This document shows positions 17,019 through 18,854 of a DNA stretch of 57,549 bases, one piece after another. The notes beneath the pieces were generated by a model. The model worked only from the letters and a program-made list of their open reading frames with translations, had not been told where the DNA came from and did no database searches. The translations under genes were made by a program, and so were the position numbers. Each line of letters opens with the position of its first letter. Within the stretch, counting starts at the first letter, position 1. This DNA is from a virus: the IMG/VR virus record IMGVR_UViG_3300029245_000012; one strand, 5' to 3'.

Positions 17019-17106
17019 AAGTAACCCTAGTTCGCCCTGTCAAGCCTGTTCCTGCAATTCAAGTAACAAAAGCCCGCATTCGTGCCATTCCTGAGATTAC
17101 CGCCCT
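17019..17106 (-). repeat. DGR-type template repeat (TR), non-coding
   Basis: Ungapped 88-bp alignment to 17191-17278 (offset 172). In the gene frame it reads GGNLRNGTNAGFCYLNCRNRLDRAN* (AAY-rich). Confidence 0.75.
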
Positions 17107-17137
17107 CACTCAAGTCCTGTTATATATTTAAGGTTAT

Positions 17138-17159
17138 GTTAAGGGGCGTTCCCCTTAAC
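17138..17159 (-). promoter_or_regulatory. GC-rich hairpin 18 nt downstream of the target-gene stop (DGR target-recognition type)
   Basis: GTTAAGGGG-AACG-CCCCTTAAC: 9-bp stem, 4-nt loop. Confidence 0.65.
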
Positions 17160-17177
17160 AATCCCCCTAAAAGCTTT

Positions 17178-18854
17178 TTAATCGGCCGACAAGCAAGCCC
17201 AGAGCGCCCCGCCAAGCCTGAACCCGCAACTCAAGTAACAAAAGCCTGCAGCCGCGCCACCCCCGAGAGCACCGCCCTGGTAATATTCTCTAGTACCGCT
17301 AGTGCTAGTGTCACCTGCATAAAGAATATCTTTATTGCCTTGACCACTATTAGCCACTTGATTTGTAGGCAGCCATGCTCCATAATTCTGCTCTACATCG
17401 CCTGTCCAATAATCTGAACCTTTGCCGTCTGTGCTTGCCGCAATATTTCCAACAAGCAAGTAGCTTGATTTTATAGTGCTTTCATCTGTAACATGCTTTA
17501 TTCCCCTAGGAGCAACATACACATCCTTAGAATAATCAGATTTAAACACCATTACTGTATCAGATGCTATTATTCCGCCACCAGCCATATACTCAACACC
17601 CTGTATCCTACAAGGATGTTTTCCATCTGAATTGCTAACAGGAGAGCCATCATGGTGTCCAATTACGGCATCAGTATCACCACTATGTGCATGCATTGAC
17701 GTCATGTATATCTTTCTTTCACTAACCGGTAAAGTATCAAATGGTTGGCAGTCAAGGTATACCGCCTTATTGTTATCATCAAGCGTTTCTATTGCTGTGA
17801 TTTTTACATCATCAGCATAAGCATGAACGCTTGATACACCTCTATCAAGTGAGCCAGAAGTATCGGCATATCCAACAGATACACATAATCCTACTTGCAA
17901 ATTATCAGCTTGTGCGTTTGTAACCGGAAAATAATTATGCTTATCTGCTGATTGCACGCTTGATGGATATTGTATGTTCCAACTTGTTACACCCGCCATG
18001 CTATCTTGACTTGACTTATTTGCATACTTGATGAGGTTAAATATCTGTGCAAATGTATATCTGTCTGAGCCAGCTCCAGTATAGCCGGTGCCTTTCTTGC
18101 CATAGTTGGTTATCATGTTTTGATAGCTTTGATTTCTTGCGACTTTGCCTCGCTGAGAATGCAGTAACCCATCTGAGCCTGTAACACTTAAGTATCTCGA
18201 CTGAATGAAATAAGGCATTATCGTGCCATCTGCACGTACCGCTTGTTCCCATGGTTTAAGTCCAAGTTCTTCGTGTGGTGTGTCGGATATGACAAGCTCT
18301 CTGTACTCGTCTGACACGTCAAGCCAAGCGTAGTAAAATGTCATTTGCATGACGCCCATATCTGCATCGCCATCTATTTTGTAGGTGCTGTCACCCACAA
18401 ATGCCGTAGGGTATGCAAAGCCATCATCGTATCGCTTATAATTGACCTCATACCACTTAAATAATGGTATGTTTTCGTAATCATCTTGATTTTCTACTGT
18501 GTCCGTAGACGGTACGCAAACAAGGTCTTTATTATCCCTTGTTTTTTCACACAAAGATGTAGGATTTGATGTCGATTTTGGAACTTTAACTCCGTATATC
18601 TTGCCTGTTCTTTGCAAAGAAAAGAACTTGTCAAGTAATATGTCGTTAAGATTATCCACAGTGTCCTTAATTGCATTTATAGCATCACCAGTTGCTTTTG
18701 CATCTGCCGGTGTATCTTCAATAGTCAAGGTCTTGTCCGTAGGCACTGGATTATTCTTAAGATACTGCTCTACAATCTGCTTTATCTTATCATCGGTGAT
18801 ACCACCTTTTTTAATTTTTTTATTGAGTAATGCGTATACTTCCTCTGCATTCAT
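17178..18854 (-). CDS. fiber-like virion protein carrying the DGR variable region
   Basis: N-terminal TLTIEDTPADAKATGDAINAIKD is a fiber-type motif. The C-terminus YYQGGALGGGAAAGFCYLSCGFRLGG resembles C-type-lectin-fold DGR targets. The gene is followed by XkdW/XkdX-type genes. Confidence 0.7.
   Translation of the reverse strand: MNAEEVYALLNKKIKKGGITDDKIKQIVEQYLKNNPVPTDKTLTIEDTPADAKATGDAINAIKDTVDNLNDILLDKFFSLQRTGKIYGVKVPKSTSNPTSLCEKTRDNKDLVCVPSTDTVENQDDYENIPLFKWYEVNYKRYDDGFAYPTAFVGDSTYKIDGDADMGVMQMTFYYAWLDVSDEYRELVISDTPHEELGLKPWEQAVRADGTIMPYFIQSRYLSVTGSDGLLHSQRGKVARNQSYQNMITNYGKKGTGYTGAGSDRYTFAQIFNLIKYANKSSQDSMAGVTSWNIQYPSSVQSADKHNYFPVTNAQADNLQVGLCVSVGYADTSGSLDRGVSSVHAYADDVKITAIETLDDNNKAVYLDCQPFDTLPVSERKIYMTSMHAHSGDTDAVIGHHDGSPVSNSDGKHPCRIQGVEYMAGGGIIASDTVMVFKSDYSKDVYVAPRGIKHVTDESTIKSSYLLVGNIAASTDGKGSDYWTGDVEQNYGAWLPTNQVANSGQGNKDILYAGDTSTSGTREYYQGGALGGGAAAGFCYLSCGFRLGGALWACLSAD
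17191..17278 (-). repeat. DGR-type variable repeat (VR) in last ~30 codons of fiber-like gene
   Basis: 20 mismatches to the TR. 18 of them lie at TR adenines. Confidence 0.75.

Follow-up and report, generated by a model that had tools for sequence, protein, structure and literature searches.

The stretch of viral DNA analysed here (IMG/VR record IMGVR_UViG_3300029245_000012, 57,549 nucleotides, hereafter the window) contains two repeats that are truly the template and the variable repeat of a diversity-generating retroelement (DGR), placed on a fibre-like protein of a gut phage, and we think that the locus is very probably the footprint of a DGR that no longer works there. We regard it as a degenerate representative of a known kind, a real DGR footprint with a defunct cassette, and most likely as a frozen relic in which hypermutation has ceased. 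This last point departs from the original prediction, which implied a working retroelement: the genome is complete and has no reverse transcriptase (RT), a single deletion appears to account for this, the template repeat (TR) has an in-frame stop codon, and the allele of the variable repeat (VR) behaves as if frozen.

A repeat search returned a single repeat family in the window, two ungapped copies of 88 nt (17019-17106 and 17191-17278) at an offset of 172 and with 77% identity, whose homology stops abruptly at both ends. The first is the TR (17019..17106, minus strand), which is intergenic, truncated at its 3' end and contains 22 adenines; the second is the VR (17191..17278, minus strand), which codes for residues ~526-555 (QGGALGGGAAAGFCYLSCGFRLGGALWACL) and, as had been proposed, forms the last ~30 codons of the minus-strand ORF 17178..18854. 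In gene sense, TR and VR differ at 20/88 positions, 18 of them TR adenines (12 A>G, 3 A>C and 3 A>T), which means that 18/22 TR adenines are changed in the VR (Fisher exact p=5.1e-13); the two non-A mismatches are G>A at repeat position 31 and G>C at position 81. Both the alignment and the adenine bias of the original prediction were reproduced by our search and recount, and its reading of the TR in the gene frame, EGGNLRNGTNAGFCYLNCRNRLDRAN, matches as well, but it had omitted the in-frame TAG that comes right after. Together with this stop, the TR shows an AA>GG change beside the deletion scar described below, and it is decaying. When the window VR is compared with the undamaged TR of a sibling (L077), 19 mismatches are at A and 1 is not (p=1.9e-14), and the window mismatches at positions 78 (one of the 18 "A" mismatches) and 81 (non-A) are later mutations on the TR side, not products of adenine mutagenesis. 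The adenines of the L077 TR are found at codon positions 1 (12) and 2 (11), with 0 at position 3.

The VR ends the target gene (17178..18854, minus strand), which is located between the portal and scaffold genes and encodes a fibre-like variable protein of 558 aa, matching phrog_17147 (E=5e-68) and nothing in Pfam or NCBIfam. Its AlphaFold model (pLDDT 82, pTM 0.84) has ~65 N-terminal residues of low confidence, a long helix (56-81) and a large C-terminal body that, as modelled, resembles DGR variable proteins. The best PDB match of this model in Foldseek (E=1e-6, probability 1.0) is 5VF4, TaqVP, the variable protein of a Thermus aquaticus DGR, whose fold is of the C-type-lectin kind, and the model's structural matches in BFVD are tail collar fibre, FGE-like and TvpA-like proteins; the model is thus in line with the fibre-like, CLec/DGR-variable-protein-like C-terminus originally predicted, and the variable-protein fold of DGRs (C-type lectin or Ig) is found in it. 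The putative fibre or receptor-binding status of the protein draws on the BFVD name "tail collar fiber protein", yet the gene sits between portal and scaffold, outside the tail module. Column variation was assessed on 14 members of a target-protein cluster of 326: in these, residues 529-554 are the focus of variation, with hardly any invariant column, against a mean column identity of 94% over the whole protein. Some homologues have PF10651 or long N-terminal repeat regions. The identical target protein occurs on 7 contigs, two of which (L004 and L005) are possibly from one biosample, and four other contigs (L010, L011, L059 and L062) end right after the target gene.

The VR continues into an IMH-like 3' extension (17181..17190, minus strand; GTCGGCCGAT), recognised in the TR/VR alignments of RT-carrying loci and followed by the TAA stop at 17178-17180. 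Its partner in intact relatives is a TR extension, GTCGGCTAAT, which is deleted in the window genome; the VR 3' end (GTCGGCCGATT) and the hairpin behind it are intact. This candidate hairpin or cruciform (17137..17160, minus strand), taken from the DNA fold centroid, has a 10-bp stem (TGTTAAGGGG/CCCCTTAACA) and the 4-nt loop AACG, lies 20 nt after the VR/IMH end, that is 17 nt after the stop codon, and is kept in relatives with the loop variants AACA, GACA and TGTT; the fold z-score of the whole 96-nt stretch around it is only -1.65. DGR hairpins have stems of 7-10 bp, 4-nt GRNA loops and distances of 4-34 bp from the VR (Guo 2011, PMC3240598), to be compared with 10 bp and 20 nt in the window, where the loop AACG does not fit GRNA.

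Since the ends of the window overlap by 99 bp, we consider it a complete genome, of 57,450 bp, in which motif scan, Pfam on 30 ORFs, ORF listing of the sparse region and tblastn detected no RT. What is left of the enzyme is its last 38 codons (16911..17024, minus strand), found by tblastn with the RT of L008, 95% identical to residues 344-381 of the latter and overlapping the beginning of the next gene, though in a different frame. In the junction alignment the deletion scar (17011..17024, minus strand) reads TTACTT joined to AAGGTAGC, the TR end being fused to RT codons 344-345, at a site where intact relatives have TTGCTT. The window lacks ~1,231 bp relative to L008, namely the TR 3' end including the GTCGGCTAATT extension, the ~190-nt spacer and the RT save its last 38 codons, and the junction suggests that all of these were removed by one deletion. 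In DGRs the TR is complete, has an IMH* counterpart and is followed by a non-coding spacer; that of the window ends at TTACTT. The 109-aa ORF that follows (16664..16993, minus strand) is a conserved neighbour downstream of the cassette, its 5' region being overlapped by the RT 3' end in RT-carrying relatives, and because of this conserved position and the absence of any family match we place it outside the cassette. It was rejected as a candidate Avd, having no Pfam, PHROG or NCBIfam match, and searches at the Pfam/NCBIfam level recognised no accessory protein (Avd or HRDC) in this ORF or among the genes called around the RT-carrying loci L008 and L009; L001 has an RNase H-like ORF instead.

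The loci of the relatives were gathered by protein-guided scans in place of an exact-pattern scan, which with the hairpin region gave 2 loci only in viral contigs; in genome contigs, a scan with the single target protein gave no matches and an alignment-based scan gave only distant (44-53%) Lachnospiraceae/Eubacteriales MAG loci. Dozens of homologous loci have the same TR/VR pair adjoining a DGR-type RT, and the original assignment of the pair to a DGR is borne out by more distant ones, in which it is followed by an RVT_1 reverse transcriptase with the motifs YMDD and IGSFLSQ. The cassette order in more distant relatives is target with VR, TR, spacer of ~190 nt and RT, and this order is the same in the distant Lachnospiraceae and Eubacteriales loci. 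RVT_1 is present in L008 and L009, and ten close RT-carrying loci have 12-19 A mismatches and 0-2 non-A mismatches in the first 94 nt of TR/VR. The target proteins of the RT-carrying siblings (L008/L009, L012/L026, L013, L025, L035, L054 and L057) are 77-92% identical in amino acids to that of the window, and that of L001 (MT835469.1) 51%; these siblings and L001 share with the window the VR/TR sequence family, the hairpin, the downstream 109-aa gene and the position in the head module. The RT-carrying relatives differ from the window in having a full TR of ~98 nt, the ~190-nt spacer and an RT of 381-431 aa with both motifs, and L001 differs further in an RNase H-like ORF between VR and TR (target, RNase H-like ORF, TR, RT). 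Against NCBIfam, the RTs of the relatives match group II, Drt3a and retron models only, below the cut-offs of these, and since NCBIfam has no DGR-specific RT model their clade membership rests on motifs and TR context.

From these comparisons we infer the following order of events in the loss of the DGR. The ancestor would have had a target gene ending in a VR, the hairpin and then, 84 nt downstream of the VR, a TR of ~98 nt, followed by a non-coding spacer of ~190 nt and a DGR-type reverse transcriptase of 381 aa. This RT would have copied TR RNA into adenine-mutagenised cDNA that replaced the VR and left the 18-19 A-specific differences. A later deletion between short microhomologies of the TT(A/G)CTT type, perhaps in two steps via an L077-like intermediate, would have taken away the IMH*-like part at the 3' end of the TR, the whole spacer and everything in the RT before its last 38 codons; since then, the VR would have been passed on like any other fixed allele and the useless TR would have gathered damage. 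BPP-1 depends on the non-coding segment downstream of its TR to prime cDNA synthesis and to make it processive (PMC6182149); by analogy, the truncated TR of the window would probably not work as a template for any RT that might be supplied.

At least 8 other forms of decay are seen among the close relatives, including loss of the TR, recombination between VR and TR, and overwriting of the TR by the VR. The TRs of L014 and L006 are mostly overwritten by their own VR sequence, the TR of L033 has an indel, losses of 172 bp in L040, L065 and L055 correspond to homologous recombination between the two copies, and L077 has all its TR/VR mismatches (21/21) at A, yet no RT. As for the deletion classes, class 318 can be derived from class 368 via a further loss of ~50 bp, and classes 222 and 195-197 from a 277-like form; a single ancestor for all of them was rejected, because classes 368 and 277 each retain pieces absent from the other, which indicates at least two independent deletion paths, or recombination. 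Assemblies break up at the VR where a DGR is active, and the apparent excess of RT-less genomes may reflect an assembly bias.

The fate of the VR since the loss of the RT is best seen in L077 and L081, which are both RT-less, each with a different deletion architecture, and both carry the VR allele of the window. The window VR has 3/88 differences from that of L077 and 4/88 from that of L081, for gene bodies that are 96.5% and 98.7% identical, respectively; these are A/G changes only, two of them at TR-A sites (a small sample). With 3-4/88 differences in the VR for a gene-body divergence of 1.3-3.5%, the VR evolves at roughly the background rate, and the ongoing VR hypervariation that would mark a working DGR is not seen across the contigs of the window, L077 and L081. 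By this comparison of alleles, that of the window behaves as frozen. By contrast, on RT-carrying backgrounds, L026 and L055 have 1 difference in 3,000 bp upstream, yet the first 20 nt of their VRs differ at 3 TR-A positions.

One could nevertheless imagine that the VR is still rewritten in trans, a co-infecting or co-resident RT-carrying relative of the L008 type making mutagenised cDNA from its own TR-spacer RNA, which then homes into the window VR. With its intact IMH-like 3' end and hairpin the VR is formally a competent recipient, RT-carrying siblings whose TRs are ~95% identical at non-A positions occur in the same habitat, and the avd-TR-brt unit of BPP-1 functions in trans from a plasmid (PMC5758913). 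Moreover, loci with one deletion junction carry several very different VR alleles (the window versus L006 and L014, L031 versus L032, L021 versus L023), such same-class pairs having 13-20 differences, almost all at TR-A positions. Assuming a single origin for each junction, these alleles either arose after the RT was lost or were moved by recombination; otherwise the junction recurred. Yet the window allele diverges at the background rate across three RT-less architectures, and among 10 loci the VR of class 222 is identical or one base off, even in L016, with a gene-body identity of only 95.8%. Gene bodies are also mosaic (L032 and L006 are 99.7% identical there, with different junctions and VRs) and the window phage encodes a RecT-like protein; since homologous recombination is frequent, VR alleles and junctions could be reassorted without homing in trans. 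Same-junction pairs of loci with near-identical flanks are too few to separate the two processes, and taking all this together we consider diversification in trans improbable for the window and prefer the frozen relic.

We find it very hard to believe that an RT is present but was missed, as too divergent, split or recoded, so that the DGR would be complete with a remote enzyme. Some DGRs do act on non-adjacent targets (PMC5758913) and many window ORFs are without annotation. Nonetheless, the scar marks the exact former site of the RT, tblastn with two family RTs gave only the 38-codon remnant (with L008 RT; nothing at E below 4 with the other), the 30 ORFs scanned with Pfam (among them all those of at least 200 aa except one of 1,334 aa) gave no RVT_1 match, and the spacer needed beside the TR is deleted too. 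The only IGxxxSQxxAN-like motif, at 48868 (plus strand), is a false positive, antisense to a PAPS-reductase-like gene in a (CTGT)14 repeat; a 356-aa ORF (14414-15484) was likewise rejected as an RT, being the major capsid protein. As to a simple local duplication of the 3' end of the gene with a coincidental or compositional A bias, the copies are indeed only 172 bp apart and recombine with each other in three relatives, but the bias itself (Fisher p=5e-13), the confinement of L077 TR adenines to codon positions 1 or 2, the concentration of cluster-member variation in the VR stretch and, above all, the dozens of homologous loci where the same pair lies beside a DGR-type RT effectively refute it.

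The locus, read as a relic, shows a DGR shortly after its death, in which the adenine-biased TR/VR signature outlasts the enzyme. As this signature outlives the RT (the case of L077 being the clearest), detection from repeats only may call DGRs that do not work, and surveys anchored on the RT miss relics. In annotation, the C-terminal 30 residues of the fibre-like protein should be described as a putative fossil hypervariable ligand-binding site, not an active one. The lineage as a whole offers a natural decay series, from RT scraps and TR loss to recombination between VR and TR and overwriting of the TR by the VR, which could be used to ask whether gut phages of the Lachnospiraceae type gain more from a fixed receptor-binding specificity than from continued hypermutation. 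Should rewriting in trans turn out to be true, it would represent a "cheater" use of DGRs, the VRs of RT-less phages being rewritten by RT-carrying siblings in co-infection or polylysogeny, and would account for many A-templated VR alleles among genomes with one RT-deletion scar.

Compared with the DGR of BPP-1 (mtd VR, TR, avd, brt), the window has the same placement of the VR at the extreme 3' end of a phage gene of the receptor-binding type, a TR rich in AAY codons, adenine-specific differences from TR to VR, an IMH-like end of the VR with a candidate GC-stem hairpin (4-nt loop) behind it, and a target with a CLec-type fold (predicted in our case); the succession of TR, non-coding spacer and RT is shared by BPP-1 and the intact relatives. 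Unlike BPP-1, the window has no RT and no recognised Avd (the latter even in RT-carrying relatives), its TR comes directly after the VR with no intervening gene, its hairpin loop is AACG and not GRNA, its target is in the head-gene block between portal and scaffold, and its host range is probably Firmicutes (Lachnospiraceae-type), not Bordetella. TaqVP (5VF4) and the window protein are both DGR variable proteins with variable residues at the C-terminal end, with an identity of only 13% and TM-scores of 0.32-0.50 that denote a partial match; TaqVP is cellular and not a phage fibre, and the window protein has an extra helical N-terminus. The closest parallel in habitat is provided by the DGRs of gut temperate phages (e.g. 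Hankyphage; Benler 2018, PMC6199706), which like the window, with its serine recombinase, belong to temperate phages of the human gut and have targets with a CLec-type fold. Those DGRs were detected via their RT and are presumed active, whereas that of the window is most likely inactive and would be missed by RT-anchored searches.

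The repeat search found a single family of direct repeats in the window, 88 nt long, with gapless copies at 17019-17106 and 17191-17278 (offset 172, 77% identity) whose similarity ends abruptly on either side. The second copy, the variable repeat (VR), makes up the final ~30 codons of the ORF 17178..18854 (-), which encodes the 558-aa target protein; the first is the template repeat (TR) of a diversity-generating retroelement (DGR). Read in gene sense (minus strand), the two copies show 20 mismatches, 18 of them at TR adenines (12 A>G, 3 A>C, 3 A>T) and the other two at G, so that 18 of the 22 TR adenines are altered in the VR (Fisher p=5.1e-13). 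The repeat pair and the adenine bias claimed by the original prediction are thus reproduced, and its gene-frame reading of the TR, EGGNLRNGTNAGFCYLNCRNRLDRAN, is also the one that we obtain, followed by an in-frame TAG.

The target, which belongs to phrog_17147, has over 2,600 homologues; its own 90% cluster comprises 326 members. When 14 of these were compared, variation was concentrated at residues 529-554, where invariant columns are nearly absent. With an alignment of 60 sequences as input, AlphaFold gave a confident model (pLDDT 82, pTM 0.84) that has a long helix (residues 56-81) and a mostly beta body, the N-terminal ~65 residues being of low confidence. The only significant PDB matches of this model are chains of TaqVP, the DGR variable protein of Thermus aquaticus (5VF4; E=1e-6 to 2.5e-5, probability 1.0, TM 0.32-0.50), and in BFVD the model matches phage proteins that bear the names tail collar fibre and tail fibre, one FGE/sulfatase-modifying-factor-like protein and one TvpA-like protein. 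Among the homologues, some have PF10651 or a long N-terminal extension rich in repeats. Together, these matches and architectures support a fibre-like, CLec-type DGR variable protein, in agreement with the fibre-like protein of C-type-lectin fold that had been predicted from the sequence. Tail fibre genes do not usually lie between portal and scaffold, as this one does.

No reverse transcriptase (RT) accompanies this pair in the window. Pfam scans of 30 ORFs (all those of at least 200 aa except the 1,334-aa ORF of tape-measure size at 6155-10159 (-)) gave no RVT_1 match, no RT candidate was present in the ORF-poor stretch at 23.8-37.4 kb, and the RT of a related phage (L001, see below) used as tblastn query found no match in the window (best E=4.6). 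The sole look-alike in a scan for YxDD and IGxxxSQ motifs lies antisense to a PAPS-reductase-like gene. With the RT of L008, a closer relative, only the last 38 codons matched, at 16911-17024.

Intact cassettes are found in relatives. In L008 and L009, whose targets are 92% identical to that of the window, the order is target, hairpin, TR of ~98 nt, spacer of ~190 nt, RT (a 381-aa RVT_1 protein with IGSFLSQ and YMDD) and a homologue of the 109-aa ORF that lies at 16664-16993 (-) in the window, the 3' end of the RT gene overlapping the start of this last ORF. Over the first 94 nt, the ten close loci with an RT show 12-19 TR/VR mismatches at A and 0-2 elsewhere, and their TR extends into GTCGGCTAATT, facing GTCGGCCGATT in the VR, which by sequence is a likely IMH*/IMH-like pair. 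The 176-kb phage MT835469.1 (L001), with a target 51% identical to the window protein, has the order target, 169-aa RNase H-like ORF, TR, RT (431 aa, YMDD) and 116-aa ORF, the latter homologous to the window 109-aa ORF (E=4e-12); 21 of its 22 TR/VR mismatches are at A. Its 169-aa ORF (13735-14244), between VR and TR, has weak RNase HI NCBIfam matches, below cut-offs; some DGRs have avd between VR and TR. More distant loci (44-57% identity), in viral contigs and in Lachnospiraceae and Eubacteriales MAGs, almost all keep the target, an A-biased TR and the RT in unchanged order, and we therefore consider the DGR to be ancestral to this target family.

Alignment with L008 indicates how the RT was lost. 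The window TR ends at ...GGGTTACTT, fused straight to AAGGTAGCAAGAAAGGTGG, whereas the L008 TR runs on (TTACTT-GTCGGCTAATTTTTGG...) into the spacer and the RT, which ends ...ATAGATTGCTT-AAAATAGCAAGAAAGGTGG. This argues for a TTACTT–TTGCTT loss of ~1,231 bp that took the 3' end of the TR, the spacer and RT codons 1-343, leaving the VR, 84 nt including a hairpin, the truncated TR and the 109-aa ORF. Processive cDNA synthesis in BPP-1 depends on the non-coding segment that follows the TR, which is bound by Avd and contains the priming site (PMC6182149); by analogy, the window TR would probably be unusable even with an RT supplied.

The truncated TR has itself begun to change. Compared with the undamaged TR of L077, an RT-less locus, it has three changes, all adjoining the scar: G78A, which turns the TGG of intact TRs into the in-frame TAG, and AA80-81GG. 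The mismatch counts of the original prediction stand, but two of its assignments do not: the non-A mismatch at position 81 is explained by an ancestral TR with A there, and the "A" mismatch at position 78 arose by mutation of the TR. When the L077 TR serves as the reference, the mismatches of the window VR are 19 at A and one elsewhere (p=1.9e-14). The remaining non-A mismatch, at position 31, is A in the window VR and G in L077 and L081 (also RT-less). The L077 pair itself has all of its 21 mismatches at A, although its RT is also deleted. Decay is worse at other scars of the window type: the TRs of L014 and L006 are largely overwritten by their own VR, with 4 and 8 differences left, and L033 has an indel.

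The distance from VR start to 109-aa ORF start falls in discrete classes (in bp). Class 1548/1549 is intact (L008, L009, L012/L026, L013/L029, L025, L035, L054, L057); class 368 (L077-L079) has a full TR and RT scraps; class 318/319 is that of the window, L004-L007, L014 and L033; class 277 (L015, L081) has no TR and keeps the hairpin and RT scraps including the YMDD codons; class 222 comprises ten loci; class 195-197 (seven loci) has neither hairpin nor TR; and class 146 (L040, L065) is the window type less 172 bp, through VR x TR recombination. In class 1376, represented by L055 (OBZV01000107.1), the RT is present and VR and TR have recombined to one chimeric copy (~5563-5680; 5' VR-like, 3' TR-like, 172 bp lost), which would disable the DGR despite the intact RT. 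A further loss of ~50 bp would turn class 368 into class 318. Since classes 368 and 277 each retain pieces absent from the other, there were at least two independent loss routes, or recombination between forms.

Among the sampled contigs with targets at least 91% identical, nearly all are RT-less, L008 and L009 alone keeping the RT. This proportion is biased, because the VR tends to interrupt the assembly of active DGR loci, and several contigs stop just past the gene. The metagenomic contigs L010, L011, L059 and L062 end within ~150 nt past the target gene, which is consistent with assembly breaks caused by either VR polymorphism or the TR/VR repeat. Such breaks would skew databases towards RT-less, frozen genomes.

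The VR alleles fit a VR frozen in RT-less genomes. That of the window recurs in L077 (3/88 differences, gene body 96.5% identical) and L081 (4/88, 98.7%), a divergence at background rate, and the class-222 VR is identical or one base off in all ten loci, including L016, which shares just 95.8% gene-body identity with the rest. The RT-containing pair L026/L055, by contrast, has 1 difference in 3,000 bp upstream but three, at TR-A positions, within the initial 20 nt of the VR. Loci with a common scar may nevertheless hold VR alleles that are far apart, with 13-20 differences, nearly every one at a TR-A position. Recombination possibly accounts for this: gene bodies are mosaic, the phage encodes a RecT-like protein, and L032 and L006 differ in scar and VR despite 99.7% identity in the gene body. 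Repeated deletion at the same microhomologies is also possible; homing in trans from siblings with an RT seems to us quite improbable.

The window is a siphovirus-type genome with a Firmicutes host. Its bases 1-99 recur as bases 57451-57549, through terminal redundancy or an overlap from assembly, and we therefore take the genome, of 57,450 bp, to be complete and either circular or terminally redundant. It encodes a large terminase (22049-23821, -), an SPP1-type portal (19093-20526, -), then target and 109-aa ORF, a scaffold (15866-16414, -), a major capsid protein (14414-15484, -) and a serine recombinase (37321-38721), with a cytosine methylase, the RecT-like protein, an SSB and others farther along. 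The GH25 + CW_7 endolysin (20535-21455, -) lies between terminase and portal, an unusual location for a lysis gene that is kept in relatives. Three tRNAs (Met-CAT, Lys-TTT, Gln-TTG) lie at 26487-27038 (-). A Hammerhead type II ribozyme match at 31937-32006 (+) (64.3 bits vs gathering score 37, E=4.5e-11) overlaps ORF 31603-31938 at its end and ORF 31838-32377 at its start, within a small plus-strand block, the remainder of the genome being minus-strand. The PAPS-reductase-like gene contains a perfect (CTGT)x14 repeat (48754-48809), within ORFs 48651-49205 and 47990-48901 (-) in different frames (TDRQ vs QTDR repeats), an arrangement suggestive of either a phase-variation switch that works by strand slippage or a gene with a frameshift. 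Adjacent DUF6273 paralogues (52510-53118 and 53121-53726, -; 202 and 201 aa) have a common ~100-nt repeat (52519-52619 / 53136-53236) with unbiased mismatches.

The locus has the repeat pair, codon positions of TR adenines, target fold and VR position of a DGR; it lacks the RT and the full TR/spacer, shows no accessory protein in Pfam- and NCBIfam-level searches and gives no sign of ongoing variation in the alleles compared. It is best classed as a degenerate DGR cassette whose RT has been deleted, new but decayed, and not as an active retroelement. The decay series, and a clean A-bias that outlasts RT loss, should be useful to DGR annotators and surveyors; the interest is modest, DGRs having been amply described from temperate phages of the gut (PMC6199706, PMC5758913). 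Among known systems, the locus resembles the BPP-1-type DGR. Its predicted hairpin (TGTTAAGGGG-AACG-CCCCTTAACA, 17137-17160, -; DNA fold centroid), with a 10-bp stem and 4-nt loop, lies 20 nt past the VR/IMH end and 17 nt past the stop codon. Loops in relatives are AACA, GACA or TGTT; in L024 (~150 nt into the VR-to-ORF segment) TGTT replaces the AACA or GACA found on the same stem in close relatives (L016/L019), so the loop is inverted, as expected for cruciform-mediated inversion. The target-site hairpins of Guo et al. have GC-rich stems of 7-10 bp and 4-nt loops, 4-34 bp from the VR (PMC3240598); that of the window is alike in size and position, but its loop is AACG, not GRNA.
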